Part shown: positions 6,301 to 43,800 of the stretch, piece after piece
Layout: each line of letters starts with the position of its first letter
Numbering within the stretch: position 1 is the stretch's first letter
Source of the DNA: Sphyrna mokarran
Taxonomy: Eukaryota
NCBI GenBank assembly: GCA_024679065.1
Contig: JAGIQG010000043.1
Coordinates: 2,480,001 to 2,544,000, forward strand
DNA length: 64,000 bases
Direction of reading: 5' to 3'
The notes under the pieces: model-generated
What the model was told of the DNA's origin: nothing
Seen by the model: only the letters and a program-made list of their open reading frames with translations
Database searches by the model: none
Program-made: the position numbers and the translations under genes

Positions 6301-9300
6301 GGATTGCAATTTCTAAGTATTTTTTTTTCGATAGAGTGGTGCAGAGAGGTAATTCCTGTTGGAATAACTGTCCTGGTCATGTTGATTCTGCTGCCGGTCC
6401 TTATTTCCATTTGGATTTGTAAAAATGGCAGATCAGGTGAGGATTAATGATTATCTGAGACACTTTAATACATTTTCCTCAATATGATTTCATCTTTGCA
6501 GTTTTCAATTAGCTCATTATATGTTCTATTTTAGAAGACAGAGATATAGGATCCCAGAATGAAACGTGAGTAAGAGAACAATGTGCAAAGTTCAACATTG
6601 TTCATTTTCCTCTTTGTTACATTTTTTTTTTCAGAATTATTTCAATCCAAAAATTGATTCCAGATGTGTGCCTCTATTTTCTATGATTTATGTAAGATGA
6701 CTGGAGAACCCTACTTTCAACAATTTGCAGCATCTGAGATAGGATAACCAAGATATAACATTTATTTGGTATTGTTTTCTCACATCCAATTTTAGCTTGA
6801 GCAAGAGAAAGCAGCGAGAGGGACATAAGGAGCGACAAATGGGTAAGATTCTTTTGAATGTTGGCAGCGATTAAATGTCAGAATTCTTTAAAAAAATGAA
6901 GTGGAAATTAATTGGTAGATGTGTTTCTATGATTAAAGCACCAGTTGATTGGTACTGACAGTAAACATGCTGAGGCATGTTTGATAGAAAAGTTGAATAA
7001 ATGGAGCACTTGAGTTTTGCAAACAAAAACATCATTGAGGTTTTTGGCCTTGTATTCATTGGTACAAAAAAACACAACAATAATACCTATATAATGGAAA
7101 CAGTTATTCATTCTACCTGAGAAGACGATTTTCCTGTTTAGCAAAATGACTCTGATTTCCTGCAGCCTTTTTAATGGAGAATGATACAGTTAACTGATAA
7201 TTGCCAGTTCTCTGCCTACATTTGTTAACATAAAAACTAGAAGGAGGAGTACGCCATTCGGCCCTTCGAACCTGCTCTGTTATTCATTATGACCACGCTG
7301 ATAATCAAACTCAACATCCTGATCCCTCTTCCCCTCAGACCATTTCATCCCGTTAGTCCCAAGAGCTATCTCTAATTTCTTCCTGAAATCACATAACGTT
7401 TTGCCCTCAACTATATTCTGTGGTAGTGAATTCCACACATTCACCACCTTCTGAATGAAGACATTTCTCATCACTCCAGTTCTGAAAGCTTTCGCCCTGC
7501 AACATCAAACTATTATCCCTTATACTCGACTTCTTCACCATCAGGAACATTGCTTCTCAATCTGTCCTATTCAATCTTGTCAGAGTTTCCTTGACGTTTC
7601 CCCTCACTCTTCTAAACTCCAGTGAATACAACCCTACCCGGCTTAGTCTCTCCTCATATAACAGACCCACCATCGAGAATTAGCTGTTAAACCTTCACTA
7701 CTCACCCTCTATAGCAAGGACATCATTCCTCAGATAAGGATACCAGAACTGCACATATCGCTTCTCACCAACGCCCTGTACAATTGTAGTCAAATATCTC
7801 ATTCCTGTACTCAAATCATCTCGCTATCAATGACAGCATGTCATTTGCCTGCTGAAGAGGTCGTTTGACTGTTTGGTCAAAGCACTGGCCCAAGGAATGA
7901 ACCAACCAGGGAATGGCTGTCCCCTCCTTTGTTTAGTTGGATTCGCCACAATGTGTGCACTTACTATGTCTGTCCACAGCGTGTGTTCCTTACCTTCAGC
8001 AAATGCAACAATCACTCTTGCAGCGGTTGGTTTCATGAACGGGGAAATTGTTGATGTTAACACAGATGATAGAAATCCTACAGTACAGAAACAGGCCATT
8101 TGCTCCAATCGAGTCTGTACTAAACACAATTCCACCAGCTTCTACTCCAATATTCTCCCGCTAATCCCTCTAACATTCGCATCTCAGGACACTAAGGGTT
8201 AACTTTAGCACGGCCAATCAACCTAAGCCGCACATCTTTGGACTGTGAGAGGAGACCGGAACACCCGGAGGAAACCCATGCAGACACGAGGGGAATGTGC
8301 AAACTCTACACAGGCAGTGACCCAAGCCAGGAATCGAACTCAGGTCCCTGGAGCTGTGAAGCAGCAGTGCTAACCACTGTACTACCATGCCGCCTTCTGG
8401 TGGACAACAAGCGAAAGCTAATGGCGTGAGATCTCCCTCATTAATCCATTGGCCACTTAACATAGAAAAATTCAAAATAAGAGCAGAAAGATTCCAGCCT
8501 GTCCTTTGCTCCTGCTTTGCCATTCACCATGATCATAGCTGATCACCCAACTCAATAGCCTGTTCGCGCCTTCTCCCCACATCTTTTGGTCCCTTCACCT
8601 GCAATGCCATTTCTAACTGCCTCTGAAGAATTGTGGAATATTTGTCACGTTGGCGAAATTTAAGTGGGCTGTGTGTTAATGATTGTAGCCTAGCAACCTA
8701 AAGCAGCGGCACGGTGGCACAGTATTAGCACATCTCTCCCGCAAAATGAGGGACCTTTGTTCGATTCTGAGTTTGGGTATCTGTATATGCCGAGTCTGCA
8801 TGTTTTCCCTGTGTGTGTGTGTGTGTGTGTTTTTTTCCGGGTGCTCCGCCCACAGTCCAAATGAGGTGCTACTTAGGTGAGTTGGCGATGCTAAATTCTT
8901 TCTCAGTGGAGGAAAACAAGTACCGGGATGTGGCGAGGGAGAGATTTTTACAGTAATATTTTTGCAGAGTTAATGTAAGCCCACTTCTGATTCTATTAAA
9001 CATACTTTAAACTGTTGACATACAAGTGGTTATTGGCGCGCGATGTTTGTATGTACTTACAGATTCTACAGCTTGGATGGTATTTCAATTCATAGTTTAA
9101 CCCTTAACATACAGGGGATCACGGTCAAACAGAGACAATCTTGAAAACGCAACGTAGAATAGAGGTGAGTGCATTGAACCCTTGTAATAAAATATATTGA
9201 AATGAATTTTGGGAAACAGTCTTTTATTTTAATCATTTCTGTTGAATATATTTCCCAGTCTCAGGGTGGACCTCTCTACGCCTCCCTGGATTTGGCTGCA

Positions 9301-9336
9301 TTGGAAAAAAGGTCAAAAAAGAAGATTGGGAAATGA
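337..9336 (+). CDS. Gene A: non-rearranging antigen-receptor-like IgSF type I membrane protein (L-VJ-C1-TM-Cyt), join(337..391,976..1308,1399..1728,6335..6436,6535..6565,6796..6842,9115..9164,9259..9336), 341 aa
   Basis: All introns are GT..AG with matching phases (1,1,1,1,2,1,0). The total is 1026 nt, an open frame from ATG337 to TGA9334-9336. It encodes a signal peptide, V-set domain, C1-set domain, hydrophobic TM and a tail ending PLYASLDLAALEKRSKKKIGK*. AATAAA signals lie at 9727 and 9736. Confidence 0.85.
976..1308 (+). CDS. Gene A exon 2, V-set Ig domain with germline-joined J-like G strand
   Basis: Acceptor tctttctag| (an in-frame alternative starts at 982). Motifs: VGQTVDLTC, WYKQ, LEIRNAQANDSGSYYC, FKNGTTLLV. 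Donor G|GTAAAT. Confidence 0.95.
1399..1728 (+). CDS. Gene A exon 3, C1-set Ig domain
   Basis: Acceptor ctgtccag|. Motifs: VFVPP, LVCLVSG, IFWN, GTYSIRS, TWRSGAVCTC. Donor G|GTGAGG. Confidence 0.95.
1845..1980. other. Assembly gap (136 N) in gene A intron 3, next to a (TG)n tract
   Basis: Run of N. Confidence 1.
1981..2130. repeat. Degenerate (TG)n microsatellite
   Basis: Direct reading. Confidence 0.95.
4170..4370. repeat. Imperfect inverted repeat, Penelope-like remnant
   Basis: AAAATGCTGGAAAATCTCAG...CTGACGGCATCTG is matched by ACGCTGTCAGAGCTGCTGAAATTTTCCAGTATTTT. Single arms occur near 40150 and 57050. Confidence 0.6.
5270..6060 (+). mobile_element. Two older CR1 3' fragments in gene A intron 3
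   Basis: LERVQKRFTRM...LDRLGLF motif and decayed CR1 3' ends. Confidence 0.8.
6335..6436 (+). CDS. Gene A exon 4, Cys stalk plus transmembrane helix (EWCREVIPVGITVLVMLILLPVLISIWICKNGRS)
   Basis: T-rich acceptor, a run of about 23 hydrophobic residues, basic stop-transfer residues, phase 1-1, donor G|GTGAGG. Confidence 0.88.
6535..6842 (+). CDS. Gene A cytoplasmic exons 5 (6535..6565) and 6 (6796..6842)
   Basis: Sites: ttttag|AAGAC...GAAAC|gtgagt and ttttag|CTTGAGC...ATGG|gtaaga. Phases 1-2 and 2-1 give an open frame EDRDIGSQNETLSKRKQREGHKERQM. Confidence 0.75.
7240..7850 (-). mobile_element. Old CR1 3' fragment in gene A intron 6
   Basis: RNVFIQKVVNVWNSLP motif and a GCCATTCGGCCCTTCG tail. 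Confidence 0.8.
8070..8394 (-). mobile_element. HE1/V-SINE-type tRNA-derived SINE
   Basis: tRNA head GGCGGCATGGTAGTACAGTGGTTAGC...GTTCGATTCC, central GAGTTTGCACATTC...CCGGT.TCCTC core, and a CR1-like 3' tail. Confidence 0.88.
8703..9000 (+). mobile_element. V-SINE variant with a different 3' tail
   Basis: tRNA head plus core, then TGTGGCGA...CAGTAA...GTTAATGTAAGCC.ACTT. The same tail occurs at 500..770(-) and 47230..47510(+). Confidence 0.7.
9115..9336 (+). CDS. Gene A cytoplasmic exons 7 (9115..9164) and 8 (9259..9336, YASL motif and stop)
   Basis: Sites: acag|GGGATC...ATAGAG|gtgagt and tttcccag|TCTCAG...AAATGA. Translation GDHGQTETILKTQRRIE/SQGGPLYASLDLAALEKRSKKKIGK*. Confidence 0.78.
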
Positions 9337-9726
9337 GAATCGGGGTGTTTTGTCTGTGATGTATTATACAGGAGACTGGAATTACCAATGTATGTTCTGC
9401 CCTGTGGAAATCAACATGGGAGCAAGTACATCCCCGTCAAACTGCTGAACGTTCCTCGCATACTGACCACAGATTGGAAAGACTGGCTCATTTTGTCAAA
9501 TATGTAACAAGTTTTTTCAGCATTGTGAAAGATGTTCTACAATATCAAGGCCATGCAAGTGTGAAGTAACACACGAAGTAATTCCCTTTTTTTGTCTTGA
9601 AATCTTCAATGGCATATTCTGTAACTCCAGTTACTAATGCGATTGTTAATTGTTTGAAAATTCCTTTGTGCAGATAAAATCAATTTTTCTTCGACTATAA
9701 CGCTGCATCAAATAGTTCTATTAACT

Positions 9727-9741
9727 AATAAATGAAATAAA
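9727..9741 (+). terminator. Tandem polyadenylation signals of gene A
   Basis: AATAAA at 9727-9732 and 9736-9741, about 400 nt after the stop codon. Confidence 0.6.
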
Positions 9742-9869
9742 GCAGAAGACAGACAGACTTCATTTGGCTCTGCTTATAACACAGCGGCCAAAACAATTTA
9801 AAACCAAACCTTCTCATCTGATTGGCACACTTTTATTCTCCGCCTACCAATGACATCACCTAAGGCTAT

Positions 9870-10712
9870 GAACATAGAACATAGAACACTACAGCACAGA
9901 ACAGGCCCTTCGGCCTTCGATGTTGCGCCGACCAATATAAAAAGCAATGCCCCTCCAAACTAAACCATTCCCTTCTCTTCCATATACTTATCAACTAACC
10001 TCTTAAACGCCACCAAACTTGGCGCATCTACAACTGCTGCAGGCAGGGCATTCCACTCCCGAACCACCCTTTGGGTAAAGAACCTACCTCTGATATCCGT
10101 CCTATAACTATCACCCCTTAATTTAAAGCTGTGTCCCCTCGTGCTAGCTTTCTCCATCCTAGGAAAAAGGCTATCACTGTCCACCCTATCTAAACCTCTA
10201 ATCATCTTATATGTTTCGATAAGGTCTCCTCTTAGCCGCCTCCTTTCTAACGAAAACAACCTCAAATCCCTCAGCCTCTCCTCATAAGACCTGCCCTCCA
10301 TACCAGGCAACATCCTGGTAAACCTCCTCTGTACCCTCTCCAATGCCTCCACATCTTTCTTATAATGCGGGGACCAGAACTGCACACAATACTCCAAGTG
10401 CGGCCGCACTAGAGTTTTGTACAGTTGCAACATGACGTTGCGGCTCCGAAATTCAATCCCCCTACCAATAAAAGCTAAGACTCCATATGCCTTCTTAACA
10501 ACCTTCTCGACTTGACTGCCTACTTTCAGGGATCTATGCACATACACACCAAGATCCCTCTGTTCATCAAGACTACTAAGAATCCTACCATTAGCCCTAT
10601 ACTCTACACATTTATTATTTCTGCCATAGTGCATTACCTCACATTTTTCAACATTAAACTCCATTTGCCACCTCTTGGCCCAGCTCTGCAACTTGTCTAA
10701 GTCCCTCTGCAA
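9870..10712 (-). mobile_element. 5'-truncated CR1 copy
   Basis: 250-aa RT C-terminal ORF; (CATAGAA)n tail on the + strand. Confidence 0.95.
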
Positions 10713-11059
10713 TGAGCTGAGAAAAACTATCTGTGAGAGCTGCAGAGATCATGATTTAAATAAAAACAATCTTTTCTTAAAGGAATGCTAACGTCACACC
10801 CATCAAACTCTAACTGTGTGTTGGATGTTGGAACACCTCCTGGAAATCCCTTCATTCACAGTCCCGCACCACATGAAGGAGAGGAATGGGAAGGGTGAGT
10901 TCACGCAAGGGTCAGGATCCCTAGCAGCAGCTGGAAGAAATGTTTCCAAGTAATCCATATTAAAACCTGCCGCAGTCCTGACACACACAGCGGAAGCTGC
11001 AAAAAGAACGATGCTCGCTGTCCCCTCATGCCAGCTGCTTTTTCCTTTTCATATCCAGA

Positions 11060-12080
11060 TCTCACTGTATAAAACGCTGGTTCGACCTCATTTGGAATAC
11101 TGCGTCCAGTTCTGGTTGCCTTACTACTGGAAGGACGTGGAGACTCTGGAGAGAGTGCAGAGGAGGTTTACCAGGATGCTGCCTGGTATGGAATGTCCAA
11201 GTTACGAGGAGAGATTAGGCAAATTAGGACTGTTTTCCTTAGAAAGACGTAGACTTAGAGGAGTTCTGATAGAGGTGTACAAGATTATGAAGGGGATAGA
11301 TAGAGTAAACAGGGTTAAGCTCTGTTCTCGGAATGACTCAAATACCACGAGGGGTCACGGGCTTAGGGTGAGGGGGGTAAAGTACAATTTGGATGCTGGA
11401 GGGGTTTTTTTCACACAGAGAGCGGTGGAGGCATGGAATGCACTGCCAAGTAAAGTGGTGGAGGCAGGTACTTTGGAGTTATTTAAGAAATACTTAGATG
11501 GGCACATGAACAGAATGGGAATGGAGGGATATAGAAAACTGGTTTAAACTAGGGATCATGAGCCTTTGGATTCCCTGGGAAGTGTGGAAATAGATGATAT
11601 TGATGTACCTGTTTTTATCTTACAGGTGCTTTGGTCCACCTTGTTTTCTAACGAGGGGCATACACGGGATGGGTCGTGAGAAGACTGCTCTTTGATCTTT
11701 TTCGAGAGTATCCTAGTGTTTCACGTCGTTAGTTTACGCTTGACCTGGACCATTTGATGGGCAACACGACAGCTCAGTGACTATCGGTGTGCTGGGCAGA
11801 TACATGGATTTGGGCCTGTGTCTGTGGGAGTTTGCGCATTCTCCCCGTGCTTGCGTGGGTTTCCTCCGGGCGCTCCGGTTTCCTCCCACATCCCAAATAT
11901 GTGCTCTTAGGCTAATTGGCAAAACAAATTCTCCCTAAATTGTCTCAAAGTTGGTTTTTAATTCATAGATCTGTAAACATGGACAGGGATCGTGGGTAGA
12001 GGTGGGAACATTGGGGTGGCGGCGCGGGCTCGTTGGGCCGAAGGGCTTTTTCCCCGTGCTGTTTTGTTCTTTGTTCTTTG
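11060..12080 (+). mobile_element. 5'-truncated CR1 with long 3' UTR containing a V-SINE-like core
   Basis: ORF LVRPHLEYC...GMEGY, then a UTR with GAGTTTGCGCATTCTCCCCGTG...CCGGTTTCCTCCCACA, and a GTTCTTT tail. A related copy lies at 23270..23920 (-). Confidence 0.9.
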
Positions 12081-12477
12081 CATGACATTAACGGCCCAGG
12101 AAATTTGCTCGGACTTAGCAAAGAGCGTGCTGGAAGTTCAGATTCTAAACAATGCCAGTGTCACTCAGTCACTGCAGCCCAACTTCCCCGGACGTTCACA
12201 TCTCTGACTGAAGGAAAATTTTAGCCTTCACCACTTTCCGCAAATCTAGGATGGTATGAAGGCAGGAATGATGGGGACAGGAGGGCATGGTACAATTAGG
12301 GAGGACAAAGGGCAAAGGACTCACCGTAAAAATTGGATGATGGGGATAGAAACTGCTGTAATACATGTGAACAGTGAGGAAATGCTGAAGGTTGGCTTCC
12401 TCCTACTATTGAATCACATTGGAATGAGGGAAGACGTTAGAGATCAATGATTGGTAGGATAGAAAATTCTTTCTCAC

Positions 12478-12665
12478 CATCTCTCTCTCTCTCTGTCTTT
12501 CTGTCTCTCTCTCTCGCTCTCACTCAGTCACCGTCTCTCTCTCTCTCTCTCTCTCAGCAAGTCTTTCTCTCGCACACACACCGTGCCTCTCCTCTCTCTC
12601 TCTCTATCTCTCTCTGTCTTCCTGTCTCTATCCCTCTATCTATCTATCTACCTATGTATGTATCC
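12478..12665. repeat. (CT)n/(CTAT)n microsatellite
   Basis: Direct reading. Confidence 0.95.
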
Positions 12666-15492: not shown

Positions 15493-15815
15493 AGCGGCGT
15501 GGTAGCACAGCGGTTAGCATTTCTGATTCGACAGCTGCAGGGTCCTGGGTTCGATTCCTGCTCGGGTCACTGCCTGTGTGGAGTTTGCACGTTCTCCTCG
15601 TATCAGCGTGGGTTGCCTCCTGCTACTCCGGTTTCCTCCCACAGTCCAAAGATGTGCAGGTTAGGTTGATTGGCCATGCGAAGAAATTGCCCTTTAGTGT
15701 CTAGTGATGTGCAGGTTAGTGGGTATAATATATGGGGGTAGGGCCTGAGTGGGATTGTGTTCGGTGCAGGCTCAATGGGCGGAAGGACCGCTTTCTGCAC
15801 TATGGGATTCTATGA
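15493..15815 (+). mobile_element. HE1/V-SINE-type SINE
   Basis: A box and B box (GGGTTCGATTCC), core and CR1-derived tail. Similar copies at 3440..3910(-), 13700..13990(+), 31010..31320(-) and 39820..40100(+). Confidence 0.88.
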
Positions 15816-15910
15816 TCTATTAGCTGGGTCAGTATCACGTTGGCCCTCGCTCTATTTTTTTTTCCTTTCCAACTTTGCAATCGCAACTGTTGTGCTGCAA
15901 TCAGCAAAAC

Positions 15911-16350
15911 ACATTACCCTTCATTGCTTGTGCATTGTTCCTCTTCCTCCCTTGTACGGGTTATTGGTTCAAATCTAACCATCAACATTTGAACTCAGTG
16001 TGATTTGTTGATGAAAGAATGGTGTATGTTATATTTTGTTGTTGCTCATACTTCAGAGGAATGATATTCTCTTTCCTGCCGAAGCAGAACAGGTAGTGAT
16101 AACCTTGTCTATTTCAGGTATTGAATCTTACGCAATTTTGCCACAGACGCCAGCAATCCGGACTCCGACCGGATTGGATGAACATACAAGTTGCATTGTC
16201 ACATGGGCTGGTTGGCATGGAGGAGTTATCTATTGGTATAAACGGCGGCAACGGGAGCATCTACAACTGAGATCTCACGATCTGTTTCCGGGATATGACG
16301 CTGTTAAAATCGTTTTATCTGTTTCCTCTTCATTTGAAGAAAGCCTGAAT
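15911..16350 (+). pseudogene. Decayed IgSF leader plus V-domain unit (probable third cluster member or orphan V gene)
   Basis: A 43-nt leader-like exon at 15911..15953 reads (T)LPFIACALFLFLP, has ACA in place of ATG, and ends at donor T|GTACGG. After acceptor tctatttcag|16118 the frame reads IESYAILPQTP...SCIVTWAGWHGGVIYWYKRRQREHLQL, with B-strand Cys and C-strand WY. It is cut at about 16352 by a Rex1 insertion. Confidence 0.65.
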
Positions 16351-16351
16351 G

Positions 16352-23155: not shown

Positions 23156-23269
23156 AAGTGCAATGAACCAATGGATGTGACATGTAGGGTTCAAGTAAAG
23201 ACACATTTTATTATATAGAAGTAAAATGAAGCTATCACAAGCTATGTTATGTGTTCATTTTTGGAAAGA

Positions 23270-24645: not shown

Positions 24646-27552
24646 TTAAACAGTCCTAATATATCCCTCTATCTGCATACCGCTCATGTGGCTGTCCAAG
24701 AGACCCTTAAACAGCCCCAGCGTGCCTGCTCCCACCACCTTACTCGGCAGTGCATTCCACACCCCCACTACCCTTTGTGTGAAAAACTGCCCTCTAATAT
24801 TCGTCCTATACATAGCCCCCCTCACCCTATGGCCATGACCTCTCGTCCTATCCATTTCTAAAGGTGGAAAAAGTTTACCTCCATTTACTCTATCTATACC
24901 CCTTATAATCTTATACACCTCTATGAGATCCCCTCTAAGCCGACGTCTTTCAAGGGAAAACAACCCCAGTCTATCTAATCGTTCCTCATAGGACAGTCCT
25001 TCCATACCAGGCAGCATCCTGGTAAACCTCCTCTGCACTCTCTCCAAGGACTCCACATCCTTCCGATAGTACGGAGACCAGAACTGGGCACAGTATTCCA
25101 AGTGAGGCCTAACCAAAGTTGTATACAACTGCAACATCAAACTCCTACTCTTATATTCTATACCCTTTTCTATGAAAGCTAACATACTATACGCCTTCTT
25201 TATCACCTTCTCCACCTGTGAGGACACCTTCAGAGACTTGTGAACCTGCACCCCCAAGTCTCTCTGCGTCTCTATGCTCCTTATAGTTTTACCTTTTATC
25301 CTATAATTCTCTTCTACATTTTTCCGGCCAAAATGCATCACCTCGCATTTTTCCGGATTAAATTCCATTTGCCATCTATCTGCCCAATCTACCAACCTGT
25401 CTATGTCCTGTTGTATTGCCTGACACTGCTCTTCTGTACCCGCCAATCCAAGCATCTTGGTGTCATCAGCAAATTTGCTGATCTCACCACCTACCCCTAC
25501 TTCCAAGTCGTTTATGTAGACCACAAATAGAAGAGGACCTAGTACTGAGCCTTGTGGCACTCCACTAGTGACAGGCTTCCAGCCGGAAAAAGAGCCTTCC
25601 ACTACTACCCTCTGTCTCCTCCTCCCGAGCCAGTTCTCGACCCATCTACATACCCGACCCTGTATCCCATGCGCCTTCACCTTCTCTATCAGTCTACCAT
25701 GAGGAACCTTGTCAAACGCCTTACTGAAATCCATGTAGACGACATCAACAGCATGTCCTTCATCAACTGTTTTTGTCACTTCTTCAAAAAATTCCACTAG
25801 ATTTGTAAGACAAGACTTCCCCTTGACGAAGCCATGCTGCGTATCCCTGATCAGATCGCAGCGCTCCAGATGCTCATACATCCTGTCCCTGAGGATCCTC
25901 TCCATTAGCTTACCTATAACTGAAGTCAAGCTCACCGGCCTATAGTTCCCTGGGTTATCCCTCTGACCTTTTTTAAACAACGGTACTACGTTTGCTATCC
26001 TCCAGTCCTCTGGGACCTCACCTGTGTCCAAGGAAGAGACAAAGATTTGCGTCAGAGGCCCAGCCAAGTCTTCCCTCAACTCCCTTAGCAGCCTGGGGTA
26101 AATGCCATCAGGCCCCGGAGCTTTATATGTCTTTAAGCTGCCTAACAGCCCCAACACCTCTTTCCTCGTAATCCTTATTTCCCTCAACCAATCCTCAACT
26201 TTGTCAACATCAGGCACAGACATCTGTCCAGTCTCCTGCGTGAATACCGACGCAAAGTATTCATTCAGGATCTCCCCCATTCCCTCAGGCTCTAAGCACA
26301 GATCCCCTCCACTGTCCCTAAGAGGTCCAATCTTGCCTCTAACCATCCTTTTGCTCCTTACATAGGAGTAAAATGCCTTTGGATTTTCCTTAATCCTACC
26401 TGCCAGAGCCACCTCGTGGCCCCTTTTTGCCTTTCTAATACCCCTTTTAAGATCCCGTCTACACTCTCTATAAGCTTCCAGCGCTATCTCAGTCCCTAGT
26501 TGCCTAGATCTAATGTAAGACTCTATCTTTTTCTTGATCAAGTCCTCAATCTCCCTGGTAAGCCAAGGTTCTCTAATCCTACCTTTCCCATCCTTCCTCC
26601 TTGCCGGCACATATCTTTCCTGCAGAGAGTTTAGTTTTCCCTTGAAAGACTCCCACATGTACCTCGTCGACCTGCCCTCAAAAAGCTTATCCCAGTCCGT
26701 ATCTTTAAGATCTTGCCTAATCTGGCCGTATCTAGCCCTCCCCCAGTTAAATACCCTCCCTTTTGGGCCAGTCTCGTCCTTTTCCATTAATATCCTAAAG
26801 CAGACAGAGTTGTGATCACTATTTGACACCTGCTCTCCTACCTCGACGTCAACCACCTGGCCTGGCTCATTCCCCAGAACCAAATCCAGTATAGCCCCCT
26901 CTCTAGTCGGGCCATCCACATACTGCTCCAAGGACCCTTCCAAAACACACTGTACAAATTCCTCCCCATCCACTCCTACAGCCCTGGGCACACTCCAATC
27001 TACTCCAGGAAAATTGAAATCTCCCACCACTACCACCCTATTTTTCCTACACTTATCTAAAATGTCCCTGCATATCCCTTCTTCCGCAGCCTGCGGGCTG
27101 TTGGGCGGTCTGTAGTAAACACCCAACAGAGTAACCACTCCCTTCCTATTCCTCAACTCCACCCATAGAGACTCAATTCCTAAATCATCCATACCTCTCT
27201 CCCTCTGCACTGCTATGACGTTGTCCTTAACTAATAAAGCCACTCCCCCGCCTCTCTTCACACCAACTCTGTCACACCTAAAACACTTATACCCTGGAAT
27301 ATTCAATTGCCAGTCTTGCCCCTCCTTCAACCACGTCTCGGTCACCGCCACCACGTCTAAACTCCTCGTGAACATTATTGCCTTCAGTTCATCTGTTTTG
27401 CCAGTCACACTCCTCACATTAAAACACATGCACTGAAGACCCTCAGCTCTCGGATATTCCTTTCTACCTACTGGTGTTACCCTATCATCCCTCTCTCTCC
27501 CACTCCCAGTTCCCGCTGTCTCCCCACCCTCCCTCCCTATTAGTTTAAACAT
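24646..27552 (-). CDS. CR1 ORF2: APE endonuclease plus reverse transcriptase, 968 aa, uninterrupted
   Basis: Endonuclease motifs NVRS, VTETW, GDFN, LDL, SDH. RT motifs [37 protein letters not shown]1 C-terminus LVRPHLEYC...[11 protein letters not shown]. Confidence 0.97.
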   Translation of the reverse strand: MFKLIGREGGETAGTGSGRERDDRVTPVGRKEYPRAEGLQCMCFNVRSVTGKTDELKAIMFTRSLDVVAVTETWLKEGQDWQLNIPGYKCFRCDRVGVKRGGGVALLVKDNVIAVQRERGMDDLGIESLWVELRNRKGVVTLLGVYYRPPNSPQAAEEGICRDILDKCRKNRVVVVGDFNFPGVDWSVPRAVGVDGEEFVQCVLEGSLEQYVDGPTREGAILDLVLGNEPGQVVDVEVGEQVSNSDHNSVCFRILMEKDETGPKGRVFNWGRARYGQIRQDLKDTDWDKLFEGRSTRYMWESFKGKLNSLQERYVPARRKDGKGRIREPWLTREIEDLIKKKIESYIRSRQLGTEIALEAYRECRRDLKRGIRKAKRGHEVALAGRIKENPKAFYSYVRSKRMVRGKIGPLRDSGGDLCLEPEGMGEILNEYFASVFTQETGQMSVPDVDKVEDWLREIRITRKEVLGLLGSLKTYKAPGPDGIYPRLLRELREDLAGPLTQIFVSSLDTGEVPEDWRIANVVPLFKKGQRDNPGNYRPVSLTSVIGKLMERILRDRMYEHLERCDLIRDTQHGFVKGKSCLTNLVEFFEEVTKTVDEGHAVDVVYMDFSKAFDKVPHGRLIEKVKAHGIQGRVCRWVENWLGRRRQRVVVEGSFSGWKPVTSGVPQGSVLGPLLFVVYINDLEVGVGGEISKFADDTKMLGLAGTEEQCQAIQQDIDRLVDWADRWQMEFNPEKCEVMHFGRKNVEENYRIKGKTIRSIETQRDLGVQVHKSLKVSSQVEKVIKKAYSMLAFIEKGIEYKSRSLMLQLYTTLVRPHLEYCAQFWSPYYRKDVESLERVQRRFTRMLPGMEGLSYEERLDRLGLFSLERRRLRGDLIEVYKIIRGIDRVNGGKLFPPLEMDRTRGHGHRVRGAMYRTNIRGQFFTQRVVGVWNALPSKVVGAGTLGLFKGLLDSHMSGMQIEGYIRTV

Positions 27553-28443
27553 TTCTGAAACACTCCAGCTAACCTCCCAGCTAAAATATGTGTTCCCCTC
27601 CCAGTCAACTGCTCCCTATCCCTCGTGAATAGGTGACCCTCCCTCCTGAAGACTTCCCAATGATCAATAAATATGAAGCCTTCTGCCCTACACCAATCCC
27701 TCATCCATGCATTTAGTTGGAGTGTCTCATTTATTACCCAATCGGTCCCGGGCACAGGCAGCAGCCCAGAGAACGCCACCCTGGAGGCCCTACCTTTCAG
27801 TTGAGCCCCCAACTCCCTAAACTGTCTACGTAAGTCCCCCCTGCGCTTTCTTCCTACATCTTTCTGTCCTATGTGAACTATTACATTTGCCTTAGACCCT
27901 TCTCCCTTCAAAATTCCCTCTACCCTCTCTGATACATCCTGGACCCCTGCTCCAGGGAGGCAGACTACCATCCTGGAGTCTCTCTTTTCCCCACAGAATC
28001 TCCTATCGATCCCTTTAACCATCCCATCCCCCACCACTATCTCACCTCCTGCTTTCCCGCCGGTCTCTGTGGCATTCTGTTCCCCCTCACCTGCCCTCTC
28101 CATCACAGCTTTTACCCCCCCCCTTGGTTTTCTGGGAATCCTCCTTAGAGATGGCCTTTGTGCCTTGATTTTTGTTCTTGTTCCTTGTAACTGTACCCAG
28201 CCCATCCCTACTACTAGATCCTGGGGTCCCTGCAGGTCTGCCTTCCCTATTCATTGTATCCTCATTTTCCCTCACTAGACAAACGTCCTCCAAGCGCAGC
28301 TCCAGCTGTCTCAACTTTGCTCGTAAACGTTGCAGTTCTAAACATTTTGCGCATATGTGGGCCTTCGGCAGACGTGATGCCTCCAAGAAGGTCCACATAT
28401 GGCAGCGTACACAGTGGACGCGTTTGGCCAAGTATCGTGGCAT
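27540..28443 (-). CDS. CR1 ORF1, split by one frameshift near a C9 run at 28115-28123
   Basis: 28087..28443 encodes CxxC..CxxC plus the coiled coil LRQLELRLED. 27540..28205 encodes an esterase-like region (IVVGDGMVKGIDRRFC, VCLPGA, VHIG). Confidence 0.85.
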
Positions 28444-33900: not shown

Positions 33901-35169
33901 CCCCCTCCCCCTCAGCTTGAACTTGTGACCCCTTGTGCTCGTCACCTCCGACTTGGGAAAAACCTTCCCACTGTTCACCCTATTGATGCCTTTCATAATT
34001 TTATCCACCTCTATTTGGCCTAGTGTCCAAAGATGTACAGGTATTCTAGATTGGTCATGCAACATTGCCCCTTAGTGGCCACAGATGTGCAGTTTTCTGA
34101 TTGACCATGCTTAGTTGTTTCTTAGTGTCCAAAGGTGTGCAGGATACCAGATTTACCATGCTAAATTGCGCCTTAGTGGTTAAAGATGTGCAGGTTAGGT
34201 GGATTGGACACGCTAAATTGTCTCCTAGTGTCAGGGGAATTAGTAGGGTAAGTATGTGGGGTTACGGCAAAAACGCCTGGATGCGTTTGCTGGCAGTGCA
34301 GGCTCAATGAGCTAAATGGCCCTCGTTCTGCACTATAGGAGTTTTATGGTTCTATAAGTTAACTTCTCCAAGATTTTATCAATTGTCAATTTTCAGCATC
34401 CTGTTTTGCATGAACCTGACTGTATCTCCTACATTTCAAAAGTAAGTGCATTTGCATAGACATATCACCGGCTACCGAGAACCAGGGACATCCTATGTTC
34501 GGGCCAGACTCGACATTAAGCTAGGCGACTGTAATCTCTCTGAAATAATGTGGGTCATGCCCTGTTGCAACTCATGCAAAGCATAGAGGCAGCACTAACT
34601 GCTCATATATCAGAGTATCAAAGGATGGTTTCGATTTCATGCTTTTCTAACACAATAAATGAAAAAAGTACAGAACAGTTTGGTACCATTCGGCCTATCA
34701 GCTGCTGTTAATGTTCCAGAGGTACCCCATTCCTTCTTTCTATCACCCCATCAACATATCCTTCTACTTCTTTCTCTCCTTTGTGTCTATCCAGTTGCTC
34801 AGTAAAAATACATCTTTGTCATTCATCTCAAGCAGACGTGAGAAGGAAAATGGGGCAACTAACGCCATAATCAGGACGATTTTAATAGTGCAATTTTTTA
34901 TTAATTGGCACATTTTAATTTGATTTTGTCTGTTTTATTATTGTCACATGTATTACTATAGAACTAAAAATGGGCCCACATTGCATTAAGTTGAACTTTC
35001 TTTGCAGCATGGCGATGATTCAGACACTACACTCTCCTTTCCTTCTCTACGAACGGTATAATTTGTCTGTACAGCGGGCAAGAAATAATAGTTTTCACTG
35101 TTTCGCAGTATATGTCACAATAATACAATTAAATCAATGTACTTGATGAATGGTGTGCTTTGTCTGCGT

Positions 35170-37700
35170 AGCGCGCAAAATAGTTCTAGAGAGGTTGAGG
35201 AAAGGATTGCAAAGTCAATTCTGATTAGGAGTGAAAGTAGTAGGGTAATTGTGATGGGGGACTTTAACTTTGCTAATATTGATTGGAATAGCTATAGCTC
35301 TAGCTCGTTAGAGGGGTCAGTTTTCGTACAGAGTGTGCAGGAAGGTTTTTTGACTCAGTATGTAGATAGGCCAACTAGAGGTGAGGCTACATTGGATTTG
35401 GTGCTGTGCAATGAGCCAGACCAGGTGTTAGGCTTGGAAGTTAGTGAACATTTTGGTGATAGTGACCACAATTCGGTTACGTTCACCTTAGTGATGGACA
35501 GGGATAGGCATGAAGCTGGGGGCAGTAGTTATAGCTGGGGGAAGGGTAATTATGAGGCCATCAGGAGAGAATTAGGGTGCATAGATTGGACTAGGAAACT
35601 ACAGGGACTGGGAACATCTGGAATGTGGTGCTTATTCAAGGAGCAGCTGCTGCGAGTCCTTGATAAGTATGTCCCTGTCAGGCAGGGAGGAAATGGTCGA
35701 GTAAGAGAGCCTTGGTGTACGAAAAAAGTTGATTTGCTGGTTAAGAAGAAAAAGGAGGCTTATGTCAGGATGAGGCTTGAAGGCTCAGTTAGTGCAATGG
35801 ATAGCTATAGATTAGCCAGGAAGGAGGTAAAAAGTGAATTGAGGAGAGCTAAGAGGGGACACGAGAAGATGTTGGCTGATAGGATTAAGGAGAATCCTAA
35901 AGCTTTCTTTCGATATGTTAAGAATAGAAGATTGGTTAGGGCAAGATTAGGGCCAGTCATAGACAGCAGTGGGAAGTTGTGCGTGGAGCCTGAAGAGATT
36001 GGTGAGGCACTGAATAAATATTTCTCTTCGGTATTCACGCAGAGTGCTGGAAATGTAGCTATGGAGAGCACTGAGGTACAGGGTTGCAAATTGGGAAGTA
36101 TTGTAGTAGATAGGGAGGATGTGTTAGAAATTCTCGAGGGTTTGAAGTTGGATAAGTCCCCTGGGCCGGACGGGATTTACCCTAGGATTCTCTGGGAGGC
36201 AAGAGAGGAGATTGCAGAGCCTCTGGCTCTGATCTTCAGGTCCTCGTTGGTTACGGGTGTGGTTCCGGAGGACTGGAGGATAGCGAATGTGGTCCCATTG
36301 TTTAAGAAGGGGAAGAGAGACCTTCCAGGGAATTATAGGCCAGTGAGTCTTACTTCTGTTGTGGGCAAGGTATTGGAGAGAATTATTAGGGATAGGATTT
36401 ATAGTTATTTAGAGAGAAATGAATTGATTGGGGATAGTCAGCATGGTTTCGTGAAGGGTAGGTCATGCCTTACTAACCTCATTGAGTTTTTTGAGAAAGT
36501 GACCAGAGAGGTGGATGGGGGTAAGGCGGTTGATGTAGTATATATGGACTTTAGTAAGGCGTTTGATAAGGTGGCCCATGGAAGACTTCTACAGAAAATG
36601 CAGATGTGTGGAATAGAGGGTGATTTAGCTAATTGGATTAGGAATTGGCTGGCAGATAGAAGACAGAGGGTGGTGGTTGATGGGAGATATTCATCGTGGA
36701 GTTCGGTGACGAGTGGTGTGCCTCAGGGGTCTGTTTTGGGGCCCCTGCTGTTTGTAATTTTTATAAATGATCTGGATGAGGGTATTGAGGGATGGATCAG
36801 TAAATTTGCAGATGACACTAAAGTTGGTGGAGTGGTAGATAGTGAAGAGGGGTGTTATAGTTTACAGAGTGACTTGGACAAGTTGCAGAGCTGGGCCGAG
36901 AGGTGGCAAATGGAGTTTAATGTGGAAAAGTGTGAGGTAATGCACTTTGGCAGGAACAATAAATGTGTAGAGTATAGGGCTAATGGTAGGGCTCTTAATA
37001 GTGTTGAGGAACAGAAGGATCTTGGTGTATGTGTCAATAGATCCCTGAAAGTAGGCAGTCAAGTGGATAAAGTTGTTAAGAAGGCATATGGAGTCTTAGC
37101 TTTTATTGGCAGGGGGATTGAATTTAGGAGCCGCAGCATCATGTTGCAACTGTACAAAACTCTAGTGCGGCCGCACTTGGAGTATTGTGTGCAGTTCTGG
37201 TCCCCACATTATAAGAAAGATGTGGAGGCATTGGAGAGGGTACAGAGGAGGTTTACCAGGATGTTGCCTGGTATGGAGGGCAGGTCCTATGAAGAGAGGT
37301 TGAAGGATTTGAGGTTGTTTTCGTTAGAAAGGGGCGGCTAAGAGGGGATCTTATTGAAGCATATAAGATATAGAGGTTAGATAGGTGGACAGTGATAGCC
37401 TTTTTCCTAGGATGGAGAAAGCTAGCACGAGGGGACACAGCTTTAAATTAAGGGGTATGAGTTATAGGACGGATATCAGAGGTAGGTTCTTTACTCAAAG
37501 AGTGATTAGGGAGTGGAATGCCCTGCCTGCAGCTGTTGTAGATGCGCCAAGTTTGGTGGCGTTTAAGAGGTTAATTGATGTATATGGAAGAGAAGGGAAT
37601 GGTTTAGTTTGGAGGGGCATTGCTTTTTATTTTGGTCGGCACAACATCGAAGGCCGAAGGGCCTGTTCTGTGCTGTAATGTTCTATGTTCTATGTTCTAT
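35170..37700 (+). mobile_element. 5'-truncated CR1 (HER1-like) LINE, long ORF2 remnant
   Basis: 734-aa ORF with GDFN/SDH and RT motifs, a frameshift near 37335, and a (TTCTATG)n tail. Confidence 0.95.
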
Positions 37701-38272
37701 AAAACATAGAACAATACAGCACAAACAGGCCCTTCAGTCCACGAGTTGCGCCGATCACATCTACCAATCCACAGACCTATCTATAACCCCCTATCCTATT
37801 CTTTTCCATATACTCATCCAGAAGTCTCTTAAAAGACCCCAGTGAGTTTGCCTCAACAACCTCCGACGGCAGTCGGTTCCATTCACTCACCACCCTCTGA
37901 GTGAAAAACCTACCCCTGACATCTCCGTTGTATTTGCTTCCCTGCACCTTAAATCTGTGTCCTCTCGTAGTAACCATTTCAGCTTGGGGAAATAGTCTCT
38001 GAGAGTCCACCCTATCTATTCCTCTCAACATTTTATAAACTCTATCAGGTCGCCTCTCAACCTACGTCTCTCCAGTGAGAAGAGTCCCAGCTCCCTCAAC
38101 TTATCTTCATAAGGCCTGTCTCCCAAACCAGGCAGCATCCTTGTACATCTCCTCTGAACCCCCTCAATAGCCTCTACATCCTTCCTATAATGGGGTGACC
38201 AGAACTGCGCACAATACTCCAACTGGGGTCTGACAAGAGTCTTATAGAGCTGCATCATTACCTCCTGACTCC
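37701..38272 (-). mobile_element. CR1 3' fragment, tail-to-tail with the 35170 copy
   Basis: ORFs ...[13 protein letters not shown]...EKNRIGGYR; near-identical to 62156..62730. Confidence 0.92.
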
Positions 38273-39120
38273 AATACTTTTCACTGTATCGTAATACATG
38301 TGACAACAATAAATCAAATCTATGTACTCTGTGAACGGTATGCTTTGTCTGTGTAGCATGCAAGAAAGAATACTTTTCACAGTGTCTCAATACATGTGAC
38401 AATAATAAATCAAATCTATGCACTCTATGAATGGTATGCTTTGCCAGTGTAGCGCAACAAGAAACAATGTTTTTCACTGTATCCCAATACATGTGACAAT
38501 AATAAATCAAATCAAATCAAATCAAATCAAAAGCATTCCCTATGCAATCGAGTTCTATATTCCCCCCATTCTTCCAACTTACATTTTAGTCCTGAATTCC
38601 TGCTTAGCGACAAACTCATCCTGCAATATTTTGGAATTCTACTTCTGCCTTGTTGAACCATTTCATAATTGTAAATATTTCAGTAGATTAGCCCTCGATT
38701 TTCAGTTTTTTCTTTCAGAGGTAAAGTGCTCCAACATCTTCAAGACTCACTAACAGTTGCACGCTCTCATTTCTGGTATCATTCGTTATGAAATGTTAAC
38801 TGAACCTTTTCCACTACCTGGGAATCCTTACCAGATCAGGAAGAACGGTGCTCTGCACTCCATTTCTGGTGTAGCTGATGTGAGTGAGATATTTGAGGCA
38901 TTTTGAAGAACATGCCGAATGCTCGCCAGCACTGACCTGTAGTAAACAGGAAAACCGCAGAGAGCTCTCTACCTCGGTTCTATTTTCAAACCCCTGTCGT
39001 GTTTTCATTCATGTGCACAGCGCGTGCATTTCACTCCTCCTCCACACAGAGAGAACAAGAGCGAGTTCTCAGTGAAATTTGGATTGGGGGCTCAGAGTCT
39101 CACGGTCTCGCTGAAGGACA

Positions 39121-39163
39121 ATGGGTTTCCTCGGTATCTGTGCATTGCTCCATCTCTTCCAGG
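39121..39163 (+). CDS. Gene B exon 1, signal peptide MGFLGICALLHLFQ
   Basis: Strong Kozak context ACAATGG, hydrophobic core, phase-1 donor G|GTGAGG. Confidence 0.8.
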
Positions 39164-40846
39164 GTGAGGTATCCTCATTATATTCAGACAGAATGGAGAG
39201 GGTTATGGAAAGAGCGAAGAAGCAGAAACTGATTCCATGGGCAGGAGTTTCCGGAACCAAGGGAATATGAATTTGGTAAAAGTAGAGAGGGAGATGAGGG
39301 GATTTTTTTAACCCCCCATCTGAGCTGTTGTGATCTGGAAGGTTTTGCCTCAAGAGATGGAGGAATCAGATCCAACAGGAACTTTCAAACGGGGTAAATG
39401 GAGCTTTCAAAATGGGTGAACTGGATACAAATTTAAAGGGGCGAAATTCAATAATATTAGTGAAATATTTTACAGATTCAACTCAAATTGGAAGAGCCGA
39501 ACGTTTCCCCTACTCTCTCCGTCTTCCGAAGTGCTATAAGTTGTGATTTAGCGTGCAATTTTAACTTAACATTGAATCAGATGTTGCTGTGAAAATGTAA
39601 CTTAGATTCATAACAATGATTTAAATGGAATTAATCTGATTTGCCATTTCTCCTGAGGTATGCAGTGTGAATTGGATCCCTTGACAATACTGGCCACATG
39701 GAGGGAGAAAGCTTTTCAAATTACACTTCAGAGTCAGTTATAAATTCTTCAACAGGCTTTAGCGCCCATAATCAACGGAGGAGAAGAAACGAGGCAAAAA
39801 TATAAAGTGCCGGAACATCTCAACGGCGCAGTGGATTAACTTTGTCATACCACAGCGCCAGGCTTGGATTCCCGGCTTGGGTCACTGCCTGCAGAGTTTG
39901 CACGTTCTCCCTGTGTCTGCGTGGGTTTCCGCTGGGTGCTCCTCTTTCCTCCCAAAATCCAAAAATGCTCGTGTAAGTTTGAATGGCCATGCTAGATTGC
40001 CCCTTTGTAACAGCGGATTAGCAGTGTAAATATGTGGGTTGGCGGGAATAGGGAAGACTCGATGGGCTGAACGGCCTCTCTCTGCACTGTAGGATTCTAT
40101 AATTCTCGGATTCTGAGAGCATCGGCGGAGAGGCAATGGAGCTCTGGCCGAAGGTCATCCAGACTCGAAGTATCGGGTCTATTCTCTCTCCACTGACGCT
40201 CTCAGAACGAGAATCATAGAGTCAGTTTGTTCAGTGCTCAAGGAGGCTACTTGGCCCATCGAGTCGGCACTGATCACAATTCCCTTAAACTCACTGAGAT
40301 TTTCCAGCATGCTCTGTCTTTTGATCAGTTTCAGGCATGCACAGTCATTTGCTTTAGTATAAGGAGAGATACGGGATGGAAACAATAGTTGAAAAATGTA
40401 ATTTTACTGAAGGTCTCTGTGTGATTAACATCACCCAGTTCCCATGTGCCCCCTCACCACTTTTTAAACCAGATTGGCTGGTGAATGAACTGGTATTACA
40501 CCTTTCGAAATGGAGGAAGAAATGGGACAACTAACACCATAATCAGAGCGATTTTTTTTTCCTGAATCAGACACTTCTGTGATTTCGTTTGATTTGATTT
40601 ATTATTGTCACCTGTATTGCTATAGAATGAAATGTTTGTTGCGCACTATACAGACAAAGCATACCGTAGATAGAGAAGGAAAGGAGAGAGTTATCGTCAT
40701 AATTGGAGAAATTTCAACTTTTGTGTGACATAGGTCTATTCAAAAGTCGGACAGCAGCAGGGAAGAAGCTGTTCTTGTGTTGGTTGGTTCGTGACCTCAA
40801 ACGTTGGTATCTTTTTCTCAACCGAAGTTGGAAGAGAGAATGTCCG

Positions 40847-40883
<37 letters not shown>

Positions 40884-43800
40884 ATGGGGGTGGGGCGTTC
40901 ATTATGCTGGCTGCTTTTCCCAGATTTAGCGGGAAGTGTCATTGGCTGGAAGGCTGGTTTGCGATTGACTCCCAATTGTCGACTGTCTTCAGGGAATGGT
41001 CCATAACCTGAGGTGACTGTTGTTCTCTCTCTTTCTGTTTCCCAGTTACAATGTCTCAGGTCACCGTGTCCCAGTCTCCGCCGGTTCAGACACTCCCTGC
41101 GGGGAGTCCTGTTAATCTCAGCTGCCACGTCCAGGGTCAAGCTGCTGGTACTGTCTTCTGGTACAGACAGAGAGGAAGAAACGGCATGGATTTGGTTTAC
41201 ACAGCGTACTTGAACAGCCGACCTAAGGAGAGATTTTCCAGCGAGATTTCTGAAAATGGGCGTTTTTGTTTCCTAAGCATTGCGGATTCCCGAATAAATG
41301 ATTCTGGGGTGTATTTCTGTGCAACGCCCCACTACCAGAACATGGTCCAAATATTCGGAAATGGCTCCAAATTCGTGATTACAGGTAAATCCCAGTATTA
41401 TTCTATAGCAGTGGATACCTCAAAGCAATTAGAGTGTTCTGTTCCACCAATTAATGAGTGTTCTGTTTCATTTACTGGATTTTTTTAGCGGGTTCTCCCA
41501 CCATATTCCTCCTCACCCCGCCGCTGGATGAGATTCACGACATGGAAAGTGTCCCATTGCTGTGTTTGGTCAGAGGCGTGTCTCCCGATTCCTTTCCCGT
41601 CCGCTGGAATGTTTTGGGGCGGGATACCGAGGGACTGACCGATTCGGGGACACTGGAGCCGGACGGGACCTACACCGTCAGGAGTTACATCAGTCTTCTG
41701 GCGGAAACTTGGAGAAGCGGTGCTCGCTGTACTTGCACCGTTCGGGTCAACTCCAGTGAAAGTATTCTCAGTGACAGTTTCTCGTCTCAGAAAGGTAGCT
41801 ATTCACAACGACTATTTTTCAATCCATTTAATGATAACAGGATACTTTACTAAAAGCAGTCTAACTTTGTAAATTACAAATGTCTCTGCGGGCATCCATG
41901 AATATCGAAATCAGCAAAGCCCTATCTTAGTCCTCCCAGTTTCATTTTCTGATATTTTGCCTCTTCTTCGTTACCGTTATGAACCGTGGATGTTCAATCA
42001 CTGAAACACATTTGTGAGAGCGGATAGATTAATGAGTAAGAGAAAGAGCGGAGAAGTGAAGTTTGTAAACATGGTGAGGGATGGTGATGTTGGATGGCAG
42101 AATAGACGAGATAGGCCGAATGGCCTCTTCTCCTCTTCCCCTTCTTATCTCTGGCTAAGACAATATGACGCATCAGAAAGTCAGGGACCAATCTGTCAGT
42201 GTGTAAAATTGAAATGTGCGATTATATCCCCAGTATTGCACTCTGTCTCAGCACAGCAGTGAACGGTTTGTTCATCCCTTCGCCTCCGTGTACTTCAATC
42301 CCATTCAATTACATTGGCCTTTCCGCGGGTGGTCCTGTTTTCCCACAAATTCCAAAGATGTGTAGGTTAGGTGGATGGGCCATGCTAAATTGCCCCTTCG
42401 TGTTCAAAGATGTGCGGTTTAAGTGGATTGGCCATGCTAAATTGCCCCTTTGTGTCCATGATGTTCGGGTTGGGTGGATTGGCCATGCTATATTGTCCCT
42501 TAGTGCCCAAAGATGTGTAGGTTAGGGTGAATTGGCCATGCTAAATTGCCCCTTAGAGTTCAAAGATGTGTAGGTTAGGGTGGATTGGCCATGCTAAATT
42601 GCTCCTTAGAGTCAACGGGTGTGTAGGTTAAGTGGACCAGCCATTGTAAATTGTTCCTTCGTGTCAAAGAATGTGAAGGCTAGGTGGATTAATCATGGTA
42701 AATTGCCCTTAATGTCAAAGGATGTGTACGTTAGGTGGATAAGCCATGGTAAATTGCTCCTTAGTAACGAAGATATGTAGGTTAGTTAGATTAGCTGTGA
42801 CAAATTGCCTTTTAGTGTCCAAAGATACGCGGGTTAAGTGGATTGGCCATGCTGAATTGCCCCTTAGTGTCCAAAATGTGCGGGTTAGGTGTATTGGCCA
42901 TGCTAAATTGAGCTGAGAGTCAGGAGGATTAGCAGAGTAAATACGCGATGTGACGGGGATAGGGTGGTGCAGACTCGATGGTCCGAATTGTCTTCTTCTG
43001 CATTATGGGATTATATGATTATTCTCTGCCTGAATCTCCCACTTTCTCCCTCCATCTCCCTGTGTGCCCTGTTCAAAAAGTTTTCAGTCTCTGTCACAAT
43101 TTCTTTCTGCCGCGCCTAGTGTTGTATTGTAAAAGTGCGACTCTATTACATGAAGGGAAAGTGTGCAAAATTTTTCTTCTTTTTCGGTCAAATTGGACAG
43201 CTAAATTGAACAATATCCTTGCTTGTTTAATTATTTCCACACTTGATTTCTGTTGACGGGAAGTTTAATGCTTTTTTGCAGATTCTCCGTTCTCGCGCAC
43301 CTGTGATTTAGTGTTTTATGGGGGTTTATCGGCCGCGGCACTTCTCCTTCTGGGATTGGTCGTTGTGGCCGGAAGAAGAATCTGCAGGAACCGGCAGAGA
43401 GGTAACGATTGTTGGGGGAATCTGTTACTCCACGGCGCTCTCAATCCACACATCTATCACCGAGTTATTGATAATTCTGAGCGGGTTCGGTGTGAAATTA
43501 ATTCATGTTAAATTTCAGTTTAAATCCCTCTTTCTAACAGGAACCGCGAACAGTGATGAGGAACTGAGAGAATCCAGAGAACACAAACAGAATAAAGAGG
43601 TGAATGAATGTTTTTTTTTTGACATACCGCGTGGATACTTTTCATTAATTATTAATCCGCGGTTTAGAATTGACAATGAACACAGAAAATTCTAGAAAAC
43701 GTCACCAACCCTGGCGGCTACCATAGACAGAGAAAGCTTCGAGGCCGAATAACTTCTTTCAAGTTAGCTTTTTTTGTTTAATTCATTCATGGAACATTTG

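Follow-up and report, generated by a model that had tools for sequence, protein, structure and literature searches.

The locus examined here raises the question of how two receptor chains, each with a single cysteine in a membrane-proximal stalk and no charged residue in the transmembrane segment (TM), assemble and signal. It lies in a 64,000-nucleotide stretch of the shark Sphyrna mokarran (GenBank assembly GCA_024679065.1, contig JAGIQG010000043.1, positions 2,480,001 to 2,544,000 of the forward strand; hereafter the window), within a contig of 2,862,578 bases (C1027) of the 2.77-Gb genome. An earlier note, made from the letters of the window alone, proposed that the two chains form covalent homo- or heterodimers that signal through their own tails rather than through CD3, FcR-gamma, or DAP12, unlike both the T cell receptor (TCR) and NKp30. 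We found that the two genes, A and B, each encode one of the two chain types in a receptor family that is germline-encoded and does not rearrange, with one joined variable-joining (VJ) and one C1 domain per chain. The window copies are likely inhibitory chains. We put at a little under 0.6 the probability that A and B form a heterodimer locked by the stalk Cys, which would be inhibitory via SHP-1/2 where the A chain has a Tyr tail and activating via FcR-gamma/CD3-zeta where it has an Arg in the TM.

Gene A is a complete leader-VJ-C1-TM-tail gene with eight exons over positions 337-9336 (+), all in frame and encoding 341 amino acids (aa), and gene B is likewise complete, with six exons over 39121-44969 (+) encoding 303 aa (Table 1). 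In both genes, the single VJ exon spans strand A to G, i.e. they are non-rearranging; together with the long tails, this rules out a rearranging TCR or immunoglobulin (Ig) light chain locus. The peptides named in the earlier note were found where it had placed them, EWCREVIPVGITVLVMLILLPVLISIWICK at 6334-6423 (+) in gene A and RTCDLVFYGGLSAAALLLLGLVVVAGRRICR at 43296-43388 (+) in gene B, within real TM exons that have canonical ends and splice in frame with the C1 exon upstream and the tail exons downstream. The best 19-residue hydropathy window (Kyte-Doolittle value 2.93 in A and 2.34 in B) contains no Lys, Arg, Asp, or Glu and starts three residues past the stalk Cys in both chains, confirming the proposed arrangement of one Cys just before an uncharged TM. 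The cytoplasmic tails of about 73 aa (A) and 43 aa (B) each carry a single Tyr motif: PLYASL in A, near the consensus of the immunoreceptor tyrosine-based inhibitory motif (ITIM), and TLYARL in B, also near consensus. With such tails and the uncharged TM, the window chains are indeed unlike the TCR in this part of the molecule.

The stalk Cys is widely conserved in both paralogues and orthologues, in agreement with the proposed covalent dimer. All 60 paralogous TM exons recovered by DNA similarity alone retain it, which, together with the in-frame AG/GT exons, rules out a chance or wrong-exon reading of the TM. It is also present in the 82 TM exons (46 B, 36 A) recovered across all fetched loci by a profile that was itself built from Cys-bearing sequences. 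Scored in a loose window, it was found in 68 of the 74 family proteins with a TM (86 examined); of a further 111 proteins, mostly from turtles, 100 have a TM and all 100 carry the Cys. The juxtamembrane Cys, which the earlier note had listed for both chains, is indeed present in both and in 72/82 TM exons of this genome, but is poorly conserved elsewhere (13/25 A-type shark proteins and 39/66 family proteins scored). It is thereby ruled out as a hallmark of the family and may at most be an optional acylation site. A stalk Cys and an uncharged TM alone are ordinary for an inhibitory dimeric receptor. The conserved Cys, the real TM exons, and the chains' own Tyr motifs together make a covalent, tail-signalling dimer the best reading for the window copies. 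AlphaFold monomer models form the V domain, C1 domain, and TM helix, and their predicted local distance difference test (pLDDT) scores fall below 50 in the stalk, so they say nothing on the bonding of its Cys.

Genes A and B belong to an array that spans 609-2,848 kb of C1027 (~2.2 Mb), in which a query with the C1 exon of gene B identified 33 A-type and 37 B-type C1 exons. These counts are lower bounds, some copies are broken, and four partial C1 matches were assigned to neither type. C1 matches that are both partial and divergent (C1027:1342732, 2021653, 2354508, and 2605011) are probably pseudogenes or a third subtype, and two of them have a nearby B-like TM exon that runs into an unrelated frame. 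The two chain types alternate along the array in 51 of 69 adjacent pairs, compared to 34.9 expected (p=0.0002). Near-exact twins in both V exons are found in three pairs among the 17 B-then-A units and in none among the 14 A-then-B units. By this twin pattern, the two window genes are probably neighbours rather than a co-duplicated pair. With B-then-A as the duplicating unit, and from the twin relation of window A, its co-duplicated partner is probably not window B and is instead a B gene beyond the window, at C1027:2451262, 30 kb upstream of window A.

The V domains of the two types differ in residues at the predicted domain interface. Gln44 (21/21) and Pro50 (20/21) in A are light-chain-like, and FGxG (25/25) and Met/Ile50 (22/25) in B are heavy- or beta-chain-like. 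At the J Phe position, where all B copies keep FGxG, 17 of the 21 A copies have a Leu with no Gly thereafter; the resulting degenerate J motif of A reads FKNG in the window and LQNG in most paralogues. The nearest folds of the A-type model are the Ig light chains of Fabs. A complex prediction for A and B of Mustelus, run without alignments, scored 0.12 against a mark of 0.34 and speaks neither for nor against pairing, and the ESM Atlas returned generic V/C1 clusters only. Variation concentrates in loops resembling complementarity-determining regions (CDRs): in a comparison of distinct V exons, 21 of type A and 25 of type B, the proportion of nonsynonymous differences (pN) in loops versus framework was 0.28 versus 0.16 in A (p=0.0006) and 0.37 versus 0.17 in B (0 of 20,000 shuffles). 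The V domain of gene A (976-1308) also has two additional cysteines in its short CDR2 region, with a spacing of five residues, and 21/21 distinct aligned copies keep this pair.

Variability of the TM is found within the family. A charged residue occurs 7-22 positions after the stalk Cys in 17 of the 82 TM exons of this genome, whereas 65, including both window copies, are uncharged, so the absence of charge described for the window copies holds for these and does not extend to the family. The Tyr tail motif is missing from 11 of the 12 proteins with a Lys or Arg in the TM, compared to 13 of the 62 uncharged ones (Fisher p=6e-6; 74 proteins, the rows being related rather than independent and the gene models possibly truncated). 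In four shark A chains (Scyliorhinus, Heterodontus, Hemiscyllium, and Chiloscyllium), the TM starts with NxxR, which PMC2413239 gives as a mark of FcR-gamma coupling. These NxxR segments are mostly closer to one another than to the uncharged TM of the same species, and for three shark species the C1 tree joins the Arg form to the non-Arg form of that species as its sister. The genome also contains two matches to the TM of zeta/FcR-gamma. Judged from these motifs, the tail-less members with a TM Arg likely use FcR-gamma/CD3-zeta. The proposed signalling through their own tails, independent of CD3, FcR-gamma, and DAP12, is at the level of sequence the best reading for both window chains, which have their own Tyr motifs, and probably fails for these relatives; the contrast with NKp30-type receptors is likewise limited to the inhibitory members. 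In the turtle set, a TM Arg is found in 6/100 proteins, all of them A-like chains.

Five A-type TM exons of this genome have an Arg nine residues past the Cys and a stop at the end of the TM. One of them is part of a second, inverted copy of gene A (C1027:2409533; region ~2403000-2421000), its twin. From ~9 kb before the window starts up to window position 2918, a stretch that takes in V and C1, the twin is 99% identical to gene A, and in the TM region identity is 82%. The stop in the twin is due to a 1-nt insertion, its tail exons have decayed, and its TM goes back to the inhibitory form rather than to NxxR; the twin appears to have arisen by recombination of two A genes. Four B-type TM exons (C1027:649558, 789455, 935675, and 1709157) have a mid-membrane Arg (ATLLRLG, TMLRLG), and at least three of the four retain a downstream match to the last exon. 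Several shark records (P0016, P0019, P0025, and P0032-type) include isoforms without a TM exon that still have a Tyr tail.

Relatives were found in sharks, rays, bichir, sturgeon, paddlefish, gar, bowfin, eel, coelacanth, and lungfish, and also in caecilian, lizards, turtles, alligator, and Xenopus (organisms drawn from 30 of the 150 listed representatives); both chain types are present in sharks and rays. In a tree of V and C1 (40 rows, with 17 rows left out), shark B groups with one reptile/caecilian/sturgeon chain type with support values of 93/93 (Shimodaira-Hasegawa-like approximate likelihood ratio test (SH-aLRT)/bootstrap), and shark A groups with the other chain type (83/65). By this topology, the two chain types would go back to the divergence of sharks and bony vertebrates, a dating that is weakly to moderately supported. 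The turtle tails fit the split, as the A-like type has ILYAHL, an ITIM consensus, and the B-like type has TEYAAV or TEYATL, which resemble the immunoreceptor tyrosine-based switch motif (ITSM). The C1 domains of the family separate from the Ig C1 domains of this genome (94/91) in a tree that held no identified TCR C domain. The outgroups were taken from Ig light-chain clusters at C772 ~7.94-7.98 Mb, whose VJ exons are joined in the germline.

In the heterodimer model that we favour, A and B would pair in Fab/TCR style via V-V and C1-C1 contacts, and the membrane-proximal stalk Cys would lock the pair. A ligand bound at the paired V loops would lead to Tyr phosphorylation and recruitment of SHP-1/SHP-2, with no adaptor required. 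Where an A chain has a TM Arg and lacks the Tyr tail, it would provide an activating version via FcR-gamma or CD3-zeta with a nearly identical ectodomain, similar to other paired receptors.

Several findings weigh against this model. Nothing observed separates a heterodimer from a homodimer directly, and the tail motifs are single and imperfect (PxYxxL, TxYxxL). The extra Cys in the C1 domain of both chains could take the stalk Cys as its partner. The A-then-B units of the array correlate as well (Mantel correlation 0.60, compared to 0.69 for the B-then-A units). In the loops, pN/pS (the ratio to the proportion of synonymous differences) is ~1 and not above, and positive selection on them is rejected. 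The Arg/stop TM of the gene A twin, with its origin in an inhibitory TM, its insertion, and its decayed tail exons, may represent a recent activating form or a pseudogene, and in turtles the link between Arg and tail is weak, since three of the six Arg chains keep the Tyr motif. Regarding the age of the family, the grouping of shark A with the reptile chains is weakly supported, the remaining members from bony fish, lungfish, and coelacanth make up a third set that joins neither type in the V+C1 tree, and a C1-only tree does not settle the links between shark and tetrapod chain types.

In addition, splicing of the Tyr exon in window B may be abnormal. The acceptor of its last exon (44923-44924) reads TG, where 29/30 copies examined have AG, which is either a variant or an assembly error; an in-frame AG is located 18 nt upstream, and its use would add six residues. 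Contigs of a related organism (85-95% alike), whose RNA origin is only a guess, cover the gene B exons; two runs connect the TM exon with tail exon 1, and one run connects tail exon 1 with the last exon. The sequencing runs yielded no reads on the splicing of gene A. The C1-to-TM joint is absent among the joints listed for these contigs (139 further joints lie outside that list), and the NCBI models of Mustelus relatives have identical C1-to-TM junctions.

The stalk Cys could also link two copies of the same chain into disulfide-bonded A2 and B2 homodimers similar to CTLA-4/CD28 or SIRP-beta1, for which a membrane-proximal Cys is typical, and the chicken PRARP chains of Fu et al. 2019 reportedly occur as homo- or heterodimers. 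Each chain has its own Tyr motif, and the alternation along the array may merely reflect a duplicated block, as tandem block duplication alone yields such a pattern. This alternative does not readily explain why the two types occur side by side in nearly 1:1 numbers here, on chromosome records of the same size in Mustelus and Cetorhinus, and also together in caecilian and turtles, nor why the V-interface residues of A and B differ in a complementary light/heavy fashion, and we regard homodimers as unlikely. The stalk Cys might instead form an intrachain bond with the extra Cys of the C1 domain, leaving the receptors as monomers or non-covalent dimers. In both chains, C-x-C replaces Y-x-C in C1, and this additional Cys is invariant in 17/17 aligned shark proteins; exactly two spare ectodomain cysteines are common to A and B, and in sharks and rays a fairly constant 20-32 residues separate the stalk Cys from the F-strand Cys. 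Still, 14 of 16 family members without the extra C1 Cys keep the stalk Cys (loose window; eight proteins unscored), which favours an interchain role, and the tyrosine position of Y-x-C normally faces the domain core. An intrachain bond appears improbable to us.

Finally, the chains could be accessory or co-receptor subunits that modulate the signal of another protein to which they are covalently bonded. This protein could be an Ig or TCR chain, as is the case for pre-T-alpha and surrogate light chain, or a CD8-like partner. While the V-C1 anatomy and the light-chain-like fold are compatible with such a role, about 70 diversified copies, loop-focused variation, and opposing TM types fit ligand-discriminating paired receptors instead. 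Moreover, the 64-kb window contains no further Ig exon besides those of genes A and B, and the Ig-like matches of the genome are located on contigs other than that of the array. We consider a subunit role very improbable.

Regarding the genomic setting, C1027 stops 14 kb to the right of the last array gene, and small contigs hold additional copies, which may be haplotype duplicates. Off the array, a 26.5-Mb contig carries one divergent A/B pair in head-to-head orientation (C894:2351000-2387500), possibly the ancestral locus. All 53 matches to class I of the major histocompatibility complex (MHC) are on C1548 and none on C1027, which is a short contig. Of 364 non-repeat frames located to the left of the array (200 kb) or around the C894 pair (200 kb), the 150 longest revealed no gene family except for weak reverse transcriptase and weak DUF4314 matches. 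Between genes A and B, the window contains a retroelement-like frame of 989 aa (24649-27615, -) and a frame of a long interspersed nuclear element (LINE; Table 1).

Table 1. Exons of genes A and B, their Cys codons, and one non-receptor frame, numbered from the first position of the window.
Feature	Position	Strand	Basis or remark
Gene A leader exon	337..391	+	ATG, GT donor, in frame; similar to orthologue leaders
Gene A VJ domain, one exon	976..1308	+	Pfam V-set
Gene A C1 exon, C-x-C replacing Y-x-C	1399..1728	+	Pfam C1-set
Gene A stalk/TM exon, uncharged TM	6335..6436	+	AG/GT ends, phase 1
Gene A stalk Cys codon	6340-6342	+	
Gene A juxtamembrane Cys codon	6418-6420	+	
Gene A tail exon 1	6535..6565	+	in-frame splice model
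Gene A tail exon 2	6796..6842	+	in-frame splice model
Gene A tail exon 3	9115..9164	+	in-frame splice model
Gene A last exon, ITIM-like GPLYASLDL and stop	9259..9336	+	Tyr present in 30/30 examined copies
LINE endonuclease/reverse transcriptase frame, 749 aa, non-receptor, between genes	35092..37338	+	Pfam RVT_1, Exo_endo_phos_2
Gene B leader exon	39121..39163	+	matches leader of Mustelus P0001
Gene B VJ domain, one exon, canonical FGxG	41046..41384	+	Pfam V-set
Gene B C1 exon, C-x-C present	41489..41794	+	Pfam C1-set
Gene B stalk/TM exon, uncharged TM	43282..43401	+	AG/GT ends, phase 1
Gene B stalk Cys codon	43302-43304	+	
Gene B juxtamembrane Cys codon	43383-43385	+	
Gene B tail exon 1	43541..43599	+	preceding intron bridged by contigs of related organism
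Gene B last exon, ITSM/ITIM-like TLYARL (ETLYARLAF)	44925..44969	+	acceptor TG

Set beside known systems, the family is best read as PRARP-like in its anatomy. The PRARP genes of Fu et al. 2019 (J Immunol 202:1992) are said to be adjacent, non-rearranging VJ(-C1)-TM genes; their products reportedly carry an ITIM or ITSM in the tail and form disulfide-linked homo- or heterodimers, and PRARP or VJ-C1 genes (Fu et al. 2019, Ohta et al. 2019) reportedly occur in bony fish, amphibians, reptiles, and birds. The shark genes share the single VJ exon, one C1 domain, the TM, an ITIM/ITSM-like tail, and two types side by side, and their relatives span the same groups except birds; no bird or PRARP-named record is found among the 120 of 253 matches listed. 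They differ in number (~70 genes compared to one pair), in their occurrence in cartilaginous fish, in the members with a TM Arg, and in the degenerate J motif of A, at a position where PRARP reportedly has the canonical FGxG. With TCR alpha-beta and gamma-delta chains, they have in common the order V(J)-C1-stalk Cys-TM and the presence of two complementary chain types. In contrast to TCR chains, whose V and J segments are separate and joined by RAG, whose TM has basic residues for CD3, whose tail is short, and which have a long connecting peptide after the Cys, the shark chains have this Cys inside the TM exon at the membrane, as well as a single VJ exon, an uncharged TM, and long Tyr tails. 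SIRPs have a V-C1-C1 structure with a TM Lys for DAP12. Similar to the shark family, they combine a VJ-type V with C1 and include inhibitory and activating members, but the shark genes have one C1 exon each and form two chain types. The trees contained no SIRP sequence.

Paired receptors with an NxxR-type TM listed in PMC2413239 include Xenopus XFL, LILRA, PIR-A, NKp46, and GPVI, and PMC3210942 describes homogenisation of ectodomains between opposing forms. The shark family resembles paired receptors in both respects: members with an uncharged TM and a Tyr tail occur beside short-tailed members with an N-terminal TM Arg, and the ectodomains are homogenised within species, as seen in the 99% identical twin of A and the sister Arg and non-Arg C1 domains. 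It differs in that those receptors are single-chain C2-type or lectin molecules, whereas the shark family consists of two VJ-C1 types with an interchain-type Cys. UrIg, as described in PMC12227049, is an elasmobranch non-rearranging VJ-C1 molecule that is secreted, has three C1 domains, forms a disulfide-linked homodimer, and is MHC-linked. UrIg and UrIg2 share the elasmobranch host, the non-rearranging VJ-C1 organisation, and, if the model holds, disulfide-linked dimers with the array genes, which differ from UrIg in being membrane-bound, in having one C1 domain, and in lying on a contig without an MHC class I match.

Public annotations label members of the family as Ig light or heavy chain-like or as uncharacterised, and it is therefore easily missed. 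The literature searched contained no description of such a shark array, though Fu 2019 and Ohta 2019 may mention shark members. Together, the genes form a large and diversified paired-receptor family in cartilaginous fish, in which one Cys, one Arg, and one Tyr per chain offer testable positions. Non-rearranging VJ-C1 genes are being sought as relics of the antigen-receptor precursor (PMC12227049), and a two-chain, membrane-bound, Cys-linked version, if true, would be closer to the TCR in architecture than the secreted UrIg. A more far-reaching possibility, which on present evidence we consider distinctly unlikely, is an ancient germline counterpart of the TCR with two chain types shared from sharks to reptiles. 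Expanded in sharks, its approximately 33 x 37 genes could pair in combination to form up to ~1000 two-V binding sites, the A chain would set the sign of the signal through an ITIM or a TM Arg, and the receptors might recognise polymorphic ligands, possibly MHC class I, on behalf of shark natural killer (NK)-like or T cells. If true, this would provide a living model of a disulfide-linked V-C1 heterodimer that predates the RAG invasion.

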